This document shows, in pieces, positions 33,959-41,878 of a stretch of DNA of 64,000 nucleotides. The position numbers and the translations under genes are program-made. Numbering within the stretch: the stretch's first letter is position 1; each line of letters opens with the position of its first letter. A model generated the notes under the pieces. That model saw only the letters and a program-made list of their open reading frames with translations. It did not search any database and had not been told where the DNA came from. Source of the DNA: Candidatus Thorarchaeota archaeon (GTDB lineage: Archaea > Asgardarchaeota > Thorarchaeia > Thorarchaeales > Thorarchaeaceae). Location of the stretch: assembly GCA_048882485.1 (NCBI GenBank), contig JBHLRP010000001.1, forward strand, positions 192,001 through 256,000, written 5' to 3'.

Positions 33959-34636
33959 TCAATCCAATTCTAAATTAGCGAGCTCAGCCTTGGCCCTCTC
34001 ATTACCCGGGTCAACGGCCAGCGCCGCCTTGTAGAACCTGATTGCATCTTCTTCTTTGCCTAGCTCCATCAGGCAAATGCCTGAATTGAGCAATGGGAAT
34101 GGGTCTCTGGGGCTATAATCGGATGCCTTTCTATAATAGACCAGTGCGTTGTCATAGTCTTCCATCATATGATAGCAGAGACCTATGTTGTTCCATATCT
34201 GTGGGTAGTCTGGCTCGAGTTTCGCTGCTTTCCTATAGTACCTGATGGCATCGTCATACTTCTCCATCTTCCGTAGCGCATTGGCAAGATTGAACCAGGG
34301 CTCGGTGTATTCAGGATCGGCCCGGCAAGCCTGCATGTAGCATTCTGCCGCCTCTTTGAGCTTGCCAGCTGCTTCCAAGGCCTGGCCTTTGTTATTATTT
34401 GCATACTTGTGATTCGGCTCCAGCTCCAAAGCCATGTTACAGCTGTGAACTGCTTCAAGATATCTCCCAAGAGCGATTAGACATGCACCATGGTTGTTCC
34501 AACCCATAGGGTCGCCTGGGCATATTGTGGTATATCTATTGTAACAGGTTAGCGCCTCTTGGAATTCCTGATTTTCAAACAAGCTATTGCATTCTCTGAA
34601 GACTGCTTCACATGACTCAGTCCTCTCATATGGCAA
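33959..34636 (-). CDS. TPR-repeat protein
   Basis: About six 34-aa TPR units (WNNHG, WFNLA, WNNIG); TTG start with a GAGGTGA SD. Confidence 0.92.
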   Translation of the reverse strand: MPYERTESCEAVFRECNSLFENQEFQEALTCYNRYTTICPGDPMGWNNHGACLIALGRYLEAVHSCNMALELEPNHKYANNNKGQALEAAGKLKEAAECYMQACRADPEYTEPWFNLANALRKMEKYDDAIRYYRKAAKLEPDYPQIWNNIGLCYHMMEDYDNALVYYRKASDYSPRDPFPLLNSGICLMELGKEEDAIRFYKAALAVDPGNERAKAELANLELD

Positions 34637-34865
34637 ACACTCTCACCTCAGTCGAGTCTTATCTTGACAACAGCGTATTTGTACATTCCCCTAGTCGTGC
34701 CCACTGACCTGCATGATGAGGCTATGCTGCCGCACAAGCCCCTACCATAGGTGCCTCTGGTGTTGTCCTGTGCCTAGACTTGCTAAAATCTCAAATCACA
34801 ACCTGGCAATTCCAATCCAGCAACTATTATATACTACTATACCGTATTATACATGCAATGCTTAG

Positions 34866-35150
34866 AGTGCGCCACGACTGACACGTATGTTAAGTGGGGG
34901 TTGGGGCGCAGACCAAAACCTTAATGCGGTTACGTGACCAGTTAAGGTGGAGCCACCATACTGTTTATGTAACACATTATGGCTGACTCTATAGCAAGGG
35001 CGCAGCACAACTAATGTGGGTCGGTCTCGGATTCTGGCGTGCGATCCGGACCTCGCATATTGCTCCAAAATGAGCTCTATGGAATGTGACGCACAAATCA
35101 TTAGGTGGTGGCGCGGCAAGCGTCATATTGCCCACTTGGGCTGTGCCCAC
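34866..35150 (+). ncRNA. Candidate structured non-coding RNA of unknown family
   Basis: At least six stems in a stretch with no credible ORF. G-U pairs favour the + strand. TATA-like TTATATA and TATTATAC lie just upstream. See findings for pairings. Confidence 0.5.
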
Positions 35151-35235
35151 CTCATTCTTCTTATTGAGTAGAACAAAATGCTAGCTCTTATTAGGGCGAC
35201 CTATGATTAGGCAAGACAACTAGGGGGCCGGGTTT

Positions 35236-36582
35236 ATGGATGATGATATGAACGGCGTTCTTCCTTCCGAGTCAGAGAAGCTGATTGAAGAGGCAAAGAC
35301 AGCGCTTTCGCGCGATCAGTATGCTGTCGCCTACAAGAAAGCTGAGGAGGCAATAGAGATTGAACCTAGTTCGGCAGTTGCTTGGAAAATCCTTGCACAG
35401 GTTGAGGTAGGCCGGAAGAATCTCAATGCAGCGATTAAGGCGTTCAAGAAATCTGTTGAACTGGACTCCGATGACTGGGAGAATTGGAATAACCTCGGTG
35501 CATTATTACTGCATGATGGAAAATCTCAAGAAGCGAAAGGTGCACTTGAAAAAGCTGCGCGACTCAATCCGGGAGATACTGGAGTCACAAACAATCTTTC
35601 CTTTCTCTATGAAAAACTAGGTGAATTAGATAAAGCTGAGAAATTACATCAGGAACTGGTTGAGAGGCGTCCTATGGAATGGACTGCATGGAGCAACATG
35701 GGTGCCTTTTTGATGAAGGTTGGAAGATATGACGAATCTGAGAGTGCCTTAAGAAAAGCTATTGAACTAGGCCCCAAGGAAGACAGTCCTAGAACGAATC
35801 TTGGGTCATTGCAGTATCTTAGAGGCGATACAAGAGGTGCGATTGAAACCCTTACTGCAGCAACGAAGATGAATCCGAAGAGTCAATCAGCAATCTTGCA
35901 GCTTGCCAAAGTCTTGGCCGAAATGCGGAGACTCACTGAAGCTGAGAATCTTTTAACTAGGGCTGAAGAACTTGGCCCTGTGGATCCAGAATTCAAGTTC
36001 TATGTAAGGATGGCTCTTGGACAGCTAATTATGCAGGAAGAGCAGCTGCGAAAGAAAACGAAGCGACATAGCGAAGCATCAACACCATGGATTGAATTGG
36101 GGTGGAATCTTGTTCAGCAAGGGAAGCTAAAGGATGCTGAAAAGATTCTGAAGAAAGCCACGAAGAAGGTTCCACCGAGTGCGGCTGCTTGGTATTATCT
36201 TGCAGGAACTCAGAGTGAGATGGACAAATTGAATGAGTCGGTAATTTCTTTTCGCAAATCATTAGAGCTTGACCCTTCCTTGAACCAAGCACGATTCGAA
36301 TGCGCCAAGGTTCTTACTCGCATGAAGGAAGATGAACAAGCGACGACTCTTCTTCAGGAGGCAGTGAAACTTCAACCAGGCTGGGCTGATGCATGGGGAT
36401 TGTTGGGGACCACACTAGGTGCTCTGGAAAAGTATCAGGATGCACTTGAAGCCTTTGAGAGGCTAAGCAAATTGACGCCTGATGATCCATTTGTCTGGAA
36501 TATGATTTCACTCTCTTATGAGAAGCTTGGGAAGACCAATGAAGCCAAAGAGGCTTCTGCGAAAGCCAGGAAATTGAGATAG
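35236..36582 (+). CDS. TPR-repeat protein
   Basis: About 12 TPR units across 448 aa. Confidence 0.92.
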   Translation: MDDDMNGVLPSESEKLIEEAKTALSRDQYAVAYKKAEEAIEIEPSSAVAWKILAQVEVGRKNLNAAIKAFKKSVELDSDDWENWNNLGALLLHDGKSQEAKGALEKAARLNPGDTGVTNNLSFLYEKLGELDKAEKLHQELVERRPMEWTAWSNMGAFLMKVGRYDESESALRKAIELGPKEDSPRTNLGSLQYLRGDTRGAIETLTAATKMNPKSQSAILQLAKVLAEMRRLTEAENLLTRAEELGPVDPEFKFYVRMALGQLIMQEEQLRKKTKRHSEASTPWIELGWNLVQQGKLKDAEKILKKATKKVPPSAAAWYYLAGTQSEMDKLNESVISFRKSLELDPSLNQARFECAKVLTRMKEDEQATTLLQEAVKLQPGWADAWGLLGTTLGALEKYQDALEAFERLSKLTPDDPFVWNMISLSYEKLGKTNEAKEASAKARKLR

Positions 36583-36840: not shown

Positions 36841-37926
36841 TTGGAAGATGATGTATACAGAGCCCTTCAAGAACACCTGGATAGAACACCTATGGGATTT
36901 CCTCCGGCTGAATCTGGTGCTGACATCCGACTTCTGAAGCGTCTATTTACCCCGGAGGAGGCACGAATTGCCACCTATCTGACCTACTCAACCTACGCTG
37001 TTGACGAATTGGACACAATCTATCGCAGGATGGACCCTGCTAAGACTTCAATCGAGGACCTTGAGGTGGTCTTGGATGGGATGGCAAGTAAGGGACTTCT
37101 ACACTTCAAGTCCGAAGGAGGAAAGAAGTTCTACAACAATGCAAATTGGGTTGTTGGCATTTACGAGTTTCAGGTCAATAGACTGTCAAAGGAACTCCTC
37201 CAGGCAATTGGAGAATACAACGCCGAAGCATATGGCAAGGCATTCTTTAGTGCGCAGCCGACCCAGCTAAGAGTGATTCCTGTCCAGAAGAGCTATACGC
37301 CTGAGAGCCCCGTGGCTCAGTATGACGATGTACGAAGGCTCATTGAAGGCGCAGATGGGCCGTTCATGGTCACTAATTGCATCTGTAGACAATCGCATGC
37401 ACTCAGAGATGATCCATGCAAGGTCACTCAGAGAGAGGAAACATGCATTGGTGCTGGTCCGTTTGCTGAAATGTATCTCAGCTTGGGATGGGGACGGGAG
37501 ATATCCAAGGAAGAGTTGGTTCAGATTATCGATCAGAATGAACAAGAAGGTCTTGTGCTTCAACCCAGCAACTCAGAGAAGATGGAGTTCATGTGTAGCT
37601 GCTGTGGATGCTGCTGTGGACTCCTACGGGGCAAAGGGGCTATGCCAAAACCCATAGAATTCTTCACGACCAACTTCTATTCGGATGTAGACCATGACCT
37701 CTGTTCTCAATGTGGAACCTGTGTTGATCTTTGTCAGATGAAGGCACTGAGTTTCCAAGATGACTTGTTGATGGTCAACCTCGACAGATGCATTGGGTGC
37801 GGTGTCTGTGTCGCAAACTGCCCAGAAGGAGCCATCACTCTAGTAAAACGTGACATGGAATTAAAACCACCAGAAAGCATGGATGAAACATATGTGAAAA
37901 TCTTGAGAAATAGAGCCAGCACATAG
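36841..37926 (+). CDS. Multi-Fe-S protein with an N-terminal wHTH-like domain, a Cys-rich centre and a C-terminal 2x[4Fe-4S] ferredoxin
   Basis: CICR, CSCCGCCCG, CSQCGTCVDLC, CIGCGVCVANCP; TTG start with a GGAGG SD. Confidence 0.85.
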   Translation: MEDDVYRALQEHLDRTPMGFPPAESGADIRLLKRLFTPEEARIATYLTYSTYAVDELDTIYRRMDPAKTSIEDLEVVLDGMASKGLLHFKSEGGKKFYNNANWVVGIYEFQVNRLSKELLQAIGEYNAEAYGKAFFSAQPTQLRVIPVQKSYTPESPVAQYDDVRRLIEGADGPFMVTNCICRQSHALRDDPCKVTQREETCIGAGPFAEMYLSLGWGREISKEELVQIIDQNEQEGLVLQPSNSEKMEFMCSCCGCCCGLLRGKGAMPKPIEFFTTNFYSDVDHDLCSQCGTCVDLCQMKALSFQDDLLMVNLDRCIGCGVCVANCPEGAITLVKRDMELKPPESMDETYVKILRNRAST

Positions 37927-38183: not shown

Positions 38184-40973
38184 TTGTTTCGATATGCGTT
38201 CAAGAGAGTCATCAGAGGATATCGCCTCTTCATTGCGCTTACTATCGGGGTTCTGGTTGCGACTACTTTCTTCTCTGCGATGGTGGTGGCCGCTGACGTA
38301 AACTCCCGAATTGCCCTAATGAACAGTCTTGACAACGTTGACTACGATCTGCGAGTGGAAGCGAACAATGTAACTTGGACTAACGCCGAAATGCTGGAGT
38401 TGAGGACTGAGCTGGAAAATCTACCTGAAATGAAATCTGCAGATGTTTACTCAAAATTGCGATATACCTACAACCTGACCACCAGGAATTCATACAATAT
38501 TATTGGAATGGATATTTCAAGTACTGCGTGGTCTAGTATTGAATACATCAATGGGTCAGCAACTCTAGGCATAAATGAAACCTATGTCGTTGCAAGCTCA
38601 GAAAACGCTTCCGCATTATCTCTGGGCCAGATTCTTCAAGTGCCTGTGACAGTGCAGACGACAGAGTTCCCCTATATTGAAACACTTGCACTCAATCTCA
38701 CTGTTGCTGGATTCGTTGATATTCCTGAACGTACTGCACGTCTCCTAAATCCTCCAACAACCATTAGCTTCGGCTTCATTCAGTTTCAGCTGGGTGACTG
38801 GCAGGACTACAATCTCCTTCTCGTTGATTGGGCATCCACAGTATCTCCACTTCTAGATTGGTATTCTGCTAACGAGAATGCTACAGGAATCATGATGACT
38901 ACTGGTTTTGCGTGTCAACTCGATCGTGATATTGTCATTAATCCCTATGATATCGGGAGTTCATCCTCAATAATTGACAACATTGTTTCCAGAATAGAGG
39001 ACAGAACCGCACTCTTCAACACTGATGTTACCAACCTTGTTGGTTCAACCCTCGCAGCAATTACATTACTGTCCACAATAATGATAGTTGCATTTGTGAG
39101 CCTAGCTGCTCCTATCATCTTCATGAGTTGGTATTCCTCAACCATGCTGAGTGATGTAAGCTATAATCTGCGACGTCGTGAGTTTGGACTGCTTTCAACG
39201 AAGGGATTGGGGCCCAGAACCATAAAGAGGATGCTTGTTTTTGAGGCACTGATCATAGGCTTAATCGGAGGGATTGTGGGCCTTTTTCTCGGCACAGTTT
39301 TGGGTCATCTTGTTGTAGATGTTGCTATCGATAATCTTCTGTTGGCAATGATAGGTAATCCCATGACCTCCATTTTTGTGGTTGCTTTCGCTCTTATTCT
39401 CTCATATTGGGCGATACGGGGACCTGCGAATCGTGCATCAAAGCTTGATCCTCTTGACGCCCTTAAACAGTATGTATACATTGAGGAGCAAAGAGAATAC
39501 AAAAGACTGCTGCCAACAATCGCTCTTATCCTTGGAACATACAAAATAATAGCATGGATATTGGGATTGAACATGCAGAGCCTAATCACAGGAGCGCTCT
39601 CAACGAATTTCATTCTCCTGATTCTCACCGCACTTCTATCTCCAATTGATGCTTTCCTGAATTATACGGGTCCCATACTCTTCCTCTACGGAGTCACAAA
39701 GATTCTCTTGAGGGGATCGCAGAAGTTTCAAGAAGCTATTGTTCAAGCAGGAAGCAGATTCTTTGATGCTTTTGGAAGACTGGCAACCAGGAATGTAAAA
39801 CGCAATCCTGCTAGGAACGCGGCTCTGGTGTTTGTTGTCGCACTCATTGTTTCCTATGGCATCTTCAGTGTTGGTGGGCTTTTCTCTGAAGCAGATCGTG
39901 TGTGGCGCACTGCACAATATGATGTGGGATCTGACGTGAGTGTGACATTCAATGCTGGAACTAATCTATCAGATACCCTTGATGATATATCCGGGCTTGA
40001 GGGTGTGGACGCTATAACCTTGGAGTATCATCTTACGATGAGCAGCACGAGGGGTAGCTTGGAAGTGAGAGGTATATCTCCTGAAAACTGGACTGATGCG
40101 GCATTCTACGAAACTATCTGGTTTAGTGGTCCCAGTCTTGATGAGGTTTTCTCGAATTTCACTGGAAACAAGATTTTGCTCTCAGTATCCGTCGCTAGGC
40201 AACTAGAACTAAGGATTGGAAACTATGTCACACTTCGAGGTACAAGTGCCAGCGACATTCATAGACTGGAAATCGTTGGCTTGGTTGGTTTTGTGAGCCC
40301 AATTGAGCAGTTCCTAGGCGACGTAGGTGGGCCAATTGGGCAATTCGCATTTGGAGGAACTTATCCTTCCTTCGTTCCTCGAAACTTCCTTAACTCAACC
40401 GGTCTTGTCGAATATGCAGAAGGTCATGTCTTAATCAAGACGGAAGATAACATAAATGGAACAATCCTCGAGGAGGAAATCTTCGCAAGCTTTGAAGATG
40501 TCAAGAATACTGATTCAGTGACATCGAACTTGAAAGCCCTTGAAGAGAATACTTTCCAGGCAGGAGGTACTAGGGCTCGATGGGTTGGTATCGCTTTTGC
40601 TGTAGTGCTCGCGATAGTGGGCACGGCATTAGTTGTGGGATTGACACTTAGAGAGAAGGAATACGAAACAACACTGCTCAGGGTTCGTGGATTCACTCGC
40701 GGGCAAGTGTTGAAGGTCCTAATTGCTGAGATTATGGTGATGATTATGTTCTCGCTCATTCTGGGTGTGGGAACGGGCCTAATCCAGCTGTTCGGAGACC
40801 TATCGAACCAAAGTCAGAATCTGCAGGCGCTAGTCCGACCGGTTGTGATTCTATCAGGTCCTGCCCTGTTAGGAATGATAGGGATGGTCGCTGCTGTTCT
40901 GGCTGCAGCTCTGATTCCAATTGGATTGACATCTAGGTTTACAGAAGGAAAGGTTGACATACTCAGGGAATAG
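38184..40973 (+). CDS. ABC transporter permease, FtsX/MacB family (two FtsX domains)
   Basis: RRREFGLLSTKGL and REKEYETTLLRVRGFTRGQV FtsX motifs; large extracellular loops. Confidence 0.9.
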   Translation: MFRYAFKRVIRGYRLFIALTIGVLVATTFFSAMVVAADVNSRIALMNSLDNVDYDLRVEANNVTWTNAEMLELRTELENLPEMKSADVYSKLRYTYNLTTRNSYNIIGMDISSTAWSSIEYINGSATLGINETYVVASSENASALSLGQILQVPVTVQTTEFPYIETLALNLTVAGFVDIPERTARLLNPPTTISFGFIQFQLGDWQDYNLLLVDWASTVSPLLDWYSANENATGIMMTTGFACQLDRDIVINPYDIGSSSSIIDNIVSRIEDRTALFNTDVTNLVGSTLAAITLLSTIMIVAFVSLAAPIIFMSWYSSTMLSDVSYNLRRREFGLLSTKGLGPRTIKRMLVFEALIIGLIGGIVGLFLGTVLGHLVVDVAIDNLLLAMIGNPMTSIFVVAFALILSYWAIRGPANRASKLDPLDALKQYVYIEEQREYKRLLPTIALILGTYKIIAWILGLNMQSLITGALSTNFILLILTALLSPIDAFLNYTGPILFLYGVTKILLRGSQKFQEAIVQAGSRFFDAFGRLATRNVKRNPARNAALVFVVALIVSYGIFSVGGLFSEADRVWRTAQYDVGSDVSVTFNAGTNLSDTLDDISGLEGVDAITLEYHLTMSSTRGSLEVRGISPENWTDAAFYETIWFSGPSLDEVFSNFTGNKILLSVSVARQLELRIGNYVTLRGTSASDIHRLEIVGLVGFVSPIEQFLGDVGGPIGQFAFGGTYPSFVPRNFLNSTGLVEYAEGHVLIKTEDNINGTILEEEIFASFEDVKNTDSVTSNLKALEENTFQAGGTRARWVGIAFAVVLAIVGTALVVGLTLREKEYETTLLRVRGFTRGQVLKVLIAEIMVMIMFSLILGVGTGLIQLFGDLSNQSQNLQALVRPVVILSGPALLGMIGMVAAVLAAALIPIGLTSRFTEGKVDILRE

Positions 40974-40975
40974 AG

Positions 40976-41878
40976 GTGGTAACTTTGGAAGGTGCAAGAA
41001 GCTACATAGAAACGAATGATTTGGTCAAAGTATATAGAATTGGAGATGTTGAAGTACAGGCGCTCCGTGGCCTTTCTATGAAAGTCGATCAGGGAGAGAT
41101 AATATCTATCATTGGCCCTAGTGGATCAGGCAAAACCACATTGCTCAACATCATTGGTGGGCTGACATATGCAACTGCTGGGAAGAGCTATGTCGCTGGA
41201 AATGATATCTCATCCTCAACTCCTGCTCAACTCGGTCATCTGCGACAGAGAACTGTTGGCCATATATTCCAGACGCTCAACCTTATTCCCACCTTGACGG
41301 CGTATGAGAACGTCGAGCTCCCTATGCTGGCAATTGGTGCTCCCAAGGCTGCGCGAAAGAAAAGAGTGACAGAGCTGCTGAATCAAGTCGGTCTGGGCCT
41401 TAGGATTAACCATAAACCTGACGAGTTGAGTGGAGGCGAGAAGCAGCGGGTTGCCATCGCGGCAGCTCTGGCCAACGATCCTCCAATCCTGATTGCTGAC
41501 GAACCAACAGGCGACCTCGATACTGAAACTGGAGCTAAGATTGTGGAATTCTTGCTATCTGTCAATACGGAAATGGGCAAGACAGTCCTTATTGTCACAC
41601 ACGACCCCCAAATAGCTAGACAGACTGACAGGATCTATAGGATCATGGATGGTCGAATCATATCTGTACAAACTCCTGGTGAGGCAGAAGAAGCAACCGT
41701 TGAGATCAAGATTCAGATGTATCGTGATAGACTCCGCGAAACCAATGAAGAGATCATTCAACTCCAAAAGGTGTATGAAGAACGGAGAGTCACTCCCGGG
41801 ACATTTGCTGAAAGATGGACAAATCTCCATCTTACAAAAGAGTTCCTTGAACGTGAATTGAATCGGATGGGTCTCTAG
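40976..41878 (+). CDS. ABC transporter ATP-binding protein (LolD/SalX type) with a C-terminal helical extension
   Basis: GPSGSGKTT, LSGGEKQR, IADEPTGDLD, VTHD; extra ~65 aa at the C-terminus. Confidence 0.95.
   Translation: MVTLEGARSYIETNDLVKVYRIGDVEVQALRGLSMKVDQGEIISIIGPSGSGKTTLLNIIGGLTYATAGKSYVAGNDISSSTPAQLGHLRQRTVGHIFQTLNLIPTLTAYENVELPMLAIGAPKAARKKRVTELLNQVGLGLRINHKPDELSGGEKQRVAIAAALANDPPILIADEPTGDLDTETGAKIVEFLLSVNTEMGKTVLIVTHDPQIARQTDRIYRIMDGRIISVQTPGEAEEATVEIKIQMYRDRLRETNEEIIQLQKVYEERRVTPGTFAERWTNLHLTKEFLERELNRMGL

Follow-up and report, generated by a model that had tools for sequence, protein, structure and literature searches.

In the window (the whole 64,000-nt stretch of Thorarchaeota DNA analysed), two divergent TPR genes (33959-34636 on the - strand and 35236-36582 on the + strand) leave a gap of 600 nt, which holds an RNA gene that extends over positions 34860-35152 of the + strand. 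This conserved and structured transcription unit does not code for protein and possesses both a promoter of its own and a T/C-rich tail, its expression being inferred in the absence of transcript data. The original prediction had placed a stand-alone and novel + strand ncRNA between divergent TPR genes at 34866-35150. Its sequence and coordinates proved exact, the flanking genes are TPR genes as stated, and the proposal itself is upheld by a conserved promoter proper to the RNA, covariation, the lack of coding signal, a single copy and the absence of any corresponding Rfam family. Three further properties were missing from that prediction: the RNA is composed of two domains, its 3' 157 nt form the conserved core, and its gene displays a layout similar to that of tRNA genes. 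The features of the locus are:

34860-35152, + strand: structured ncRNA gene, supported by folding, covariation and conservation among relatives
34820-34835, + strand: upstream promoter with a BRE-like stretch and TATA box, GCAACTATTATATAC, conserved genus-wide (promoter role inferred)
34844-34854, + strand: AT-rich promoter-proximal box GTATTATACAT, invariant within the genus, with a similar AT-rich box in other genera
34860-34995, + strand: 5' domain, from the minimum-energy fold and compensatory changes in the genus
34860-34868 with 34986-34995, + strand: closing helix P0 of the 5' domain fold
34869-34909, + strand: hairpin HP1 of the 5' domain fold
34911-34927, + strand: internal box AGACCAAAACCTTAATG, a motif kept across genera
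34919-34982, + strand: long hairpin HP2 of the 5' domain fold, with double changes
34996-35152, + strand: 3' domain and conserved core, a 157-nt four-way junction (alignment A3, consensus fold, model R1)
35149-35167, + strand: ACC tail at 35149-35151, single-stranded, then the T/C-rich tract TCATTCTTCTTATTGA, from invariance and comparison with tRNA genes

Folding, promoter and 5' domain

The + strand of 34866-35150 folded at -112.1 kcal/mol, better than its dinucleotide shuffles (z -3.96, with 1 of 200 shuffles equally good), and the - strand gave a z-score of -2.0. Folded alone, the 3' domain reached a z-score of -3.3 and the 5' domain a z-score of -3.9 (minimum free energy of -52.7 kcal/mol). 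Among the seven pairings initially listed, five are present in the minimum-energy fold and two short ones are unsupported. The hairpin joining 34868-34878 to 34900-34910, the closing stem (34998-35020 with 35131-35148) and the hairpins that it encloses (35023-35052, 35062-35075 and 35083-35092 with 35120-35129) are all formed in this fold, with strong covariation of the closing stem and of the enclosed hairpins over the 25 distinct sequences available for the 3' domain. By contrast, the pairings 34918-34924 with 34942-34948 and 34951-34955 with 34980-34984 are replaced by the longer hairpin 34919-34982, which shows compensatory changes within the genus. A small protein gene was ruled out: variable sites were evenly distributed among codon phases (53/54/53), revealing no codon periodicity, and no conserved ORF was kept among the relatives.

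The limits of the transcription unit are drawn by conservation. When 13 genomes from the genus are aligned, conservation sets in abruptly at the TATA box ACTATTATATAC (34823-34834), for which a TTTTATA-type box is found at the matching place in every other genus. It stops at GCCCACC, followed by a T/C-rich tract, and both flanks are unalignable in these 13 genomes. The TATA-like boxes and the pyrimidine tract that had been noticed in the single sequence are conserved among relatives. Considering the usual archaeal promoter-to-start spacing of about 26 nt, transcription is predicted to start at ~ 34857 ± 4, a position inferred from this spacing without end mapping. At the other extremity, CCCACC was present in 52/52 distinct sequences, with T (41 sequences) or C (11 sequences), and never A or G, as the following base.

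The 5' domain is itself structured, with 75% of the cells pairing in 12 genomes of the genus versus 31-44% in slid controls, and 11 pairs changed on both sides, including 3 in P0 and 7 in HP2. Between genera, it varies in length, sequence and architecture. It contains the internal box, whose family consensus (ACC-RAAAG-YTATA) resembles the tRNA-gene promoters of the source genome. The distance from this box to the GGGC that opens the core is 30-46 nt in most genera, and 81 nt in the source genus, where the box is located inside HP2. Since the tRNA-type box is there embedded in a covarying hairpin, the upstream promoter must yield a long transcript in the source genus, and the 290-nt RNA may be the working form in these organisms.

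Conserved core, tRNA-gene-like layout and intron-like inserts

The conserved core was characterized with alignment A3, composed of 26 sequences from 12 genera, of which the 25 distinct ones were used for covariation counts, whereas the invariance of loops and ends was counted over 52 distinct sequences. The core folds into a four-way junction, with an internal loop separating P1 and P2, and contains, on the + strand:

34998-35006 with 35140-35148, + strand: P1, 9 bp, 5' strand GGGCGCAGC, 97.8% paired, 4 double-change pairs
35017-35021 with 35130-35134, + strand: P2, 5 bp, 5' strand UGGGU, 92% paired, 3 double-change pairs
35023-35052, + strand: hairpin A, 8 of 10 pairs with double changes
35035-35043, + strand: loop A UGGCGUGCG, with GGCGUGC invariant over the 52 distinct sequences
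35056-35081, + strand: hairpin B, with the A-rich loop CAAAAU at 35066-35071 and 6 of 7 pairs with double changes
35083-35129, + strand: hairpin C, a 10-bp stem and a large loop, 98% paired, 8 double-change pairs
35104-35119, + strand: loop C core GGUGGUGGCGCGGCAA, nearly invariant over the 52 distinct sequences

Within this core, 95.5% of the cells pair, compared with 30-46% when partners are slid, and compensatory changes on both sides affect 29 of the 41 pairs, values that none of 500 shuffles reached. Among the 52 distinct sequences, hardly any departs from the G-rich loops UGGCGUGC and GGUGGUGGCGCGGCA or from the end GGGC...GCCC-ACC, with GGUGGUGGCGCGGCA of loop C kept at 90% or more. In P1, the first pairs (GGG/CCC) are unchanged, and at least 90% of the sequences retain the fourth one (C-G). 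Further near-invariant sites include the CG before hairpin A, the GC after it, and A.AA in loop B. That the loops remain constant while every stem varies points to a conserved partner outside of the RNA.

The gene carrying this core is organised like a tRNA gene. In the source genome, tRNA genes encode the CCA, downstream of which tracts like cttcttct or ttctccttc are found, and are preceded by CCGAAAG-CTTTAWA or CTTAAG boxes located 35-40 nt before the mature 5' end. The GGGC...GCCC-ACC of the core resembles the ends of tRNA-Val and tRNA-Met from the same genome, and is directly followed by tcattcttctt. The RNA gene thus combines all the elements that define this layout, namely a tRNA-type promoter box, a G1-C72-type closing stem with a single-stranded NCC(A), and a T/C-rich tail. 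In addition to these elements, it shares with archaeal tRNA genes a four-way junction and, in some relatives, inserts sized and built like the tRNA introns of the source genome. However, the RNA differs from a tRNA by its length (157 nt instead of ~ 76), by a closing stem of 9 bp + 5 bp instead of 7 bp, by the lack of D, anticodon and T loops, and by the final A of CCA, which is never encoded. The RNA is probably processed in a tRNA-style manner, although the processing steps and the RNA ends are only inferred.

The inserts were found in loop C of three relatives, after the positions matching 35105 and 35108, and are absent from the source copy. G016, which belongs to the source genus, carries a 30-nt insert after UUAGG, and G026, from another genus, a 29-nt insert after UUAGGUGG. 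G174, from the same genus as G026, carries both (30 + 30 nt), leaving between them an exon of 3 nt, UGG. In the three genomes, insert removal restores UUAGGUGGUGGCGCGGC exactly as observed in about 50 intron-less copies. All four inserts follow the same build (1+9+5+8 or 9+4+2), i.e. one base, a 9-nt strand of an inner helix, a 5-nt loop (AUUUC, AAUCC, UUAAA or AGAUC), an 8-9-nt return strand, then four and two bases, the four bases pairing with the four exon bases that precede the 5' site. Between the first-site inserts of G016 and G174, the inner helices differ by three compensatory double changes.

In archaeal bulge-helix-bulge motifs, a helix of 4 bp lies between two 3-nt bulges, one on each strand, and splicing takes place within the bulges. 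The geometry of the inserts corresponds to this scheme, with 3-nt bulges GG|N and AN|U on both sides of a central helix (AUUA/UAAG or AGGU/GCCG). Each of these central helices is nevertheless made of three pairs and one A.G mismatch, and the unconstrained fold of the G016 copy prefers a neighbouring 4-bp helix. The intron of tRNA-Ala(UGC) in the source genome (30 nt, loop AAUUC) is parsed identically, with a 1+9+5+9+4+2 build and a perfect 4-bp central helix. Furthermore, the 16S rRNA gene of another relative, G034, contains three similar tandem 30-nt hairpin inserts near its 3' end, with the loop AUUUC. The inserts of the RNA are intron-like, and would represent tRNA-type bulge-helix-bulge introns, an assignment based on their sequence and geometry in which both cleavage and ligation are inferred, without junction reads or enzyme data.

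Repeated gains of such introns at splicing-competent sites have been described in Asgard tRNA genes (10.64898/2026.10.13.758758), in a preprint that covered neither Thorarchaeota nor non-tRNA hosts. Other archaeal stable RNAs are processed at bulge-helix-bulge motifs, such as rRNA precursors and the permuted SRP RNA of Thermoproteus (PMC4731332). The Thorarchaeota RNA is likewise a non-tRNA stable RNA apparently cut by the tRNA splicing endonuclease. Unlike in these examples, however, the motif corresponds here to ordinary loop introns instead of circularisation or permutation, and the host RNA belongs to no known family.

Novelty, distribution and gene neighbourhood

No match was found in Rfam 15 for the whole window at gathering thresholds, nor in E-value mode for 34600-35300, nor across 16 homologous loci, and no paper describing this RNA was found in the literature. 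The absence of tRNA, SRP and RNase P hallmarks already noticed in the original prediction agrees with ARAGORN and with the Rfam models, none of which matched the element. A tRNA is a ~ 76-nt cloverleaf with a 7-bp acceptor stem and D, anticodon and T arms bearing conserved loop residues; ARAGORN detected none in the window and the Rfam tRNA model (RF00005) gave no match. A tmRNA contains a tRNA-like domain, with a T arm near its 3' end, and a tag-peptide reading frame; ARAGORN found none, and the element has neither a T arm nor a conserved ORF. The model of archaeal SRP RNA (RF01857), which features helices 5, 6 and 8, detected the copy of the source genome at C58:5972-6282 (90.3 bits), and that of archaeal RNase P RNA (RF00373), which features the conserved regions CR-I to CR-V, detected its copy at C110:45-382 (162.7 bits); neither matched the element itself. 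The RNA is an uncatalogued folded ncRNA and represents a new family of a known general kind, i.e. a stable structured RNA with tRNA-like processing, the latter being inferred.

A DNA search recovered the element in 27 of 36 genomes from the same family and in none of the 24 genomes taken from 17 further families of the phylum. Genomes were then searched with the covariance model R1, built from the 3' domain, bearing in mind that the genome sets are samples containing many incomplete genomes, for which an absence means that the RNA was not found among those searched. R1 gave one match in the source genome (169.6 bits), in which the element is single-copy; of the 26 other family genomes sampled, 24 gave one match each. 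At the scale of the whole family, exactly one match was obtained in 68 of 86 genomes, covering 16/16 genera and 21 of 23 high-quality genomes. By contrast, no match was obtained in 124 genomes of 26 other Asgard families. Even at E-values up to 10, R1 recovered nothing in the nearly complete family members G024 (97%) and G025 (93%), in the only sister-family genome (G037) or in two other Asgard genomes, and motif searches in G024, G025, G037, G173, G179 and G181 returned nothing but chance matches within coding regions. Scanning GTDB with a pattern, at one genome per species, yielded 33 model-confirmed loci, whose record titles mention Thorarchaeota, Promethearchaeota, 'uncultured archaeon' or 'archaeon'. 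Bacterial GTDB matches to the pattern were rejected as chance occurrences in GC-rich DNA, none of them scoring with R1. The RNA, whose homologues display the strong covariation described above, is restricted to one Asgard family, recorded as Thorarchaeota in public databases, and was not found elsewhere among the genomes searched.

This distribution bears on the possibility, evoked in the original prediction, of an RNA relic of a mobile element. A relic, or a guide RNA such as a transposon-associated omega RNA or a retron-type RNA, could be highly structured and limited to one lineage, as observed here. The element is not a repeat, however, since it occurs as a single copy in the source genome; one copy was likewise found in each of 68 genomes, the neighbourhood is conserved, no transposase, reverse transcriptase or nuclease gene adjoins the RNA, and no flanking repeats were noticed. 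For a gene both single-copy and syntenic, we regard a mobile origin as barely credible.

The identity of the neighbouring genes similarly bears on a role as switch or leader. The gene directly downstream encodes a TPR protein in the source genome and in G005, an Fe-S protein in six genomes of the source genus, and an FtsX-type permease in four genomes. In most genera, this position is occupied by a gene for a signal-peptide/membrane protein of ~ 190 aa, followed by the FtsX-type permease, and in genus g5 by a gene for a 222-aa membrane protein. The source genome retains both the permease (38184-40973) and its ATPase (40976-41878) downstream, behind two inserted genes. The downstream gene was on the same strand at every locus examined, and an ABC operon lies downstream in most genera (within 3 kb in the source genome), so that the RNA could be conceived as a cis leader, riboswitch or attenuator of these genes, ancestrally of a small membrane protein and FtsX/ABC transporter operon. 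Riboswitches and leaders are, however, characterized by a constant tie to one downstream gene or pathway and by an expression platform overlapping a terminator or a start site. Because the adjacent gene differs between relatives (TPR, Fe-S protein, permease, ~ 190-aa membrane protein or 222-aa protein), the RNA is not the leader of one particular gene, and the switch allowed by the original prediction is not supported. A riboswitch or cis leader was rejected with five different genes directly downstream among relatives and no Rfam riboswitch match. The tRNA-gene-like tail, the endonuclease-type introns and the acceptor-like end are also not leader features, and we consider this role very unlikely.

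Potential mode of action and partners

We lean, with limited assurance, towards a stable trans-acting RNA that would be matured by the tRNA machinery and act via its loops, its processing, its partner and its function being inferred. In this scenario, transcription would start from the archaeal promoter of the gene, near 34857, and the second, tRNA-type box within the 5' domain may also fire. The acceptor-like stem GGGC.../...GCCC with its single-stranded ACC closes the four-way junction, which keeps the two almost unchanging loops open. The tRNA machinery is inferred to cleave the RNA before G34998, thereby removing or separating the structured 5' domain, and to trim the 3' end at ACC. In some relatives, the tRNA splicing endonuclease would remove the 29-30-nt bulge-helix-bulge introns from loop C, with UUAGG|UGG and UUAGGUGG|UGGCGCGG as predicted spliced junctions. 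The mature RNA may then recognise a conserved partner through its two loops, most likely a C-rich single strand, such as an anti-Shine-Dalgarno-like sequence, the NCCA 3' end of tRNAs or mRNA leaders, a protein being also possible. Several points weigh against this scenario: ends, processing and even expression are inferred without transcript data; no partner was found; the nearly complete genomes G024 and G025 show no copy; and each central helix of the introns contains an A.G mismatch, with another local pairing favoured by the free fold of G016.

Loop A contains a UGGC motif and loop C contains UGGU and UGGC, together with the Shine-Dalgarno-like AGGUGGU. By base complementarity only, AGGUGGU could pair with the tail AUCACCU of the G034 16S rRNA, and the UGGN motifs of both loops could pair with NCCA ends; both are leads only.

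Partners were searched among available sequences. Base-pairing trans-acting sRNAs are recognised by a conserved seed that matches conserved sites in their targets; for such a role, the element offers its invariant unpaired loops. In the source genome, loop complements of at least 10 nt were not above chance, those of 10 and 11 nt being below uniform expectation, and a single 10-nt complementary site, located in a hairpin on contig C78, was at chance level. Pairing of the loops with 23S rRNA, SRP RNA and RNase P RNA was no better than that of shuffled loops, and the same result was obtained with the 16S rRNA of G034. This lack of RNA target (among source-genome complements and the 23S, SRP, RNase P and G034 16S RNAs) would be expected from a lineage-specific RNP scaffold, in which the invariant loops bind a protein instead of an RNA. 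Such a scaffold would also account for invariant loops carried by freely covarying stems, and for a single-copy gene nearly universal in the family, like housekeeping RNAs. Conversely, no conserved neighbouring protein gene stands out as a partner, as the RNA neighbours genes for a membrane protein and an ABC transporter, from which other genes separate it in the source genus, and neither a K-turn nor any other known protein-binding motif was recognized by eye. A scaffold of this type therefore appears improbable to us, without being negligible.

The loops may alternatively find their partner within the RNA, the full 290-nt transcript being the working form, with a 5' domain whose pseudoknots with the 3' loops would shape a compact core, RNP-type or catalytic. 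The loop complementarities on which the original prediction based its possible pseudoknot do exist in the sequence, but a loop without variation leaves nothing for covariation to test. The 5' domain has a structure of its own, backed by compensatory changes in the genus, and C-rich 5' motifs (GUGCGCCA, GCACGCC, CUAUCACC and GCGCCGCCAUC) are found opposite loops A and C in many genera. The duplex between the 5' region and loop C reached a z-score of -6.5, against -1.6 for the reversed-loop control; for loop A, the z-score of -6.1 was almost matched by the control (-4.7), so that pairing with the 5' region is suggestive for loop C only. Moreover, the length, sequence and architecture of the 5' domain differ between genera while the loops stay constant, although a purely internal pairing would allow covariation, and neither the positions nor the registers of the complementary motifs are constant. 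We retain an internal pseudoknot as a minority possibility that deserves consideration; no evidence was found in favour of a ribozyme, also evoked in the original prediction.

A more ambitious version of the trans-acting RNA can be formulated, in which a mature 155-nt RNA would constitute a new tRNA-like class following the whole tRNA maturation pathway, potentially including RNase P cleavage, 3' trimming, CCA completion and intron splicing, down to the 3-nt micro-exon. Its loops would dock C-rich strands of the translation apparatus, the putative candidates being tRNA NCCA ends and the 16S anti-Shine-Dalgarno tail, making it a global translation regulator or sponge. We consider it as speculative and doubtful.

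The trans-acting RNA that we favour can be compared with documented archaeal and orphan RNAs. Like sRNA154 and sRNA162 of Methanosarcina mazei, the Thorarchaeota RNA is intergenic, has a promoter of its own and carries conserved loops, unpaired and potentially able to bind targets by base pairing. It is, however, far more elaborately folded, with tRNA-like ends, and its loops are G-rich and Shine-Dalgarno-like instead of complementary to ribosome-binding sites, without target found in the source genome. Like the orphan structured ncRNA candidates of the Weinberg/Breaker type, which comparative genomics brought to light, it owes its definition to conservation and covariation alone, within one lineage and with unknown function. 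It differs from these candidates by being archaeal and limited to one Asgard family, by its tRNA-gene layout and endonuclease-type introns, and by its absence from Rfam 15.

To our knowledge, few stable RNAs beyond tRNAs and rRNAs are known as substrates of the tRNA-processing and splicing machinery. The Thorarchaeota RNA is a possible new substrate of tRNA processing, with mini-introns inserted inside its most conserved loop and, in one relative, an exon of only 3 nt between two of them. Because mini-introns of the same kind also occur in tRNA genes and in a 16S rRNA gene of the lineage, this locus offers a clean test case for the spread and tolerance of introns. In addition, the covariance model can be used to annotate the RNA in new Asgard genomes. 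Finally, being nearly universal and single-copy in the family, this RNA probably plays a central role there.

Genes following the RNA gene

Downstream of the structured non-coding RNA gene, a TPR gene (window 35236-36582) encodes a protein of 448 aa and separates the RNA gene from a gene for an Fe-S protein (36841-37926) only in the genome of the window (G000) and in one relative (G005). In the other genomes of the genus, the Fe-S gene directly follows the RNA gene with no TPR gene in between and, because the rest of the genus shares this uninterrupted order, we infer from the sequence comparison that the TPR gene was inserted recently. Most genera encode a conserved ~190-aa protein between the RNA gene and the downstream FtsX/ABC operon of permease and ATPase genes (e.g. 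L026:798-1409, minus strand). This protein, for which no Pfam match was found, has a signal peptide as well as a membrane anchor at its C terminus.

An incomplete RNA copy and a complement of loop C

The RNA copy of another relative (L014, G010:C268, ~1518-1640) lacks the stretch from loop C, one of two nearly invariant G-rich loops in the 3' domain of the RNA, through the 3' end. Its breakpoint lies between two TCATTA repeats, one located in loop C and the other in the 3' tail. Either the gene is truncated or the assembly is at fault, this MAG being 73% complete.

In G000:C78 (minus strand ~8971; plus-strand coordinates ~2058-2337), a 10-nt sequence perfectly complementary to loop C (GCCACCACCU) was detected within a hairpin loop, downstream of a TATA-like box and immediately 5' of a short ORF. 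Such an occurrence is at chance level for a 10-mer.

Stable RNA genes and short hairpin inserts

The SRP RNA of G000 (C58:5972-6282) scored 90.3 bits, slightly below the Rfam cut-off of 96.5. The G000 assembly contains a 23S rRNA gene (C34:29135-32216) and no 16S rRNA gene. Throughout this genome, CCA is encoded in every tRNA gene for which no intron was called. Thirteen tRNA genes are interrupted by short introns (11-58 nt), several of which occupy non-canonical positions; ARAGORN predictions that include 300-1000-nt introns appear unreliable.

At the 3' end of a further relative's 16S rRNA gene (L213, G034:C2:61808-63345, minus strand), ~95 nt separate ...CCGTAGCGG from CTGCGGATGGATCACCTCCT. 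This stretch consists of three tandem hairpins of ~30 nt apiece, each with an ATTTC loop, and shares its build with the G000 tRNA introns and with the 29-30-nt intron-like inserts in loop C of three relatives' RNA copies. These hairpins may represent mini-introns located in 16S rRNA helix 45.
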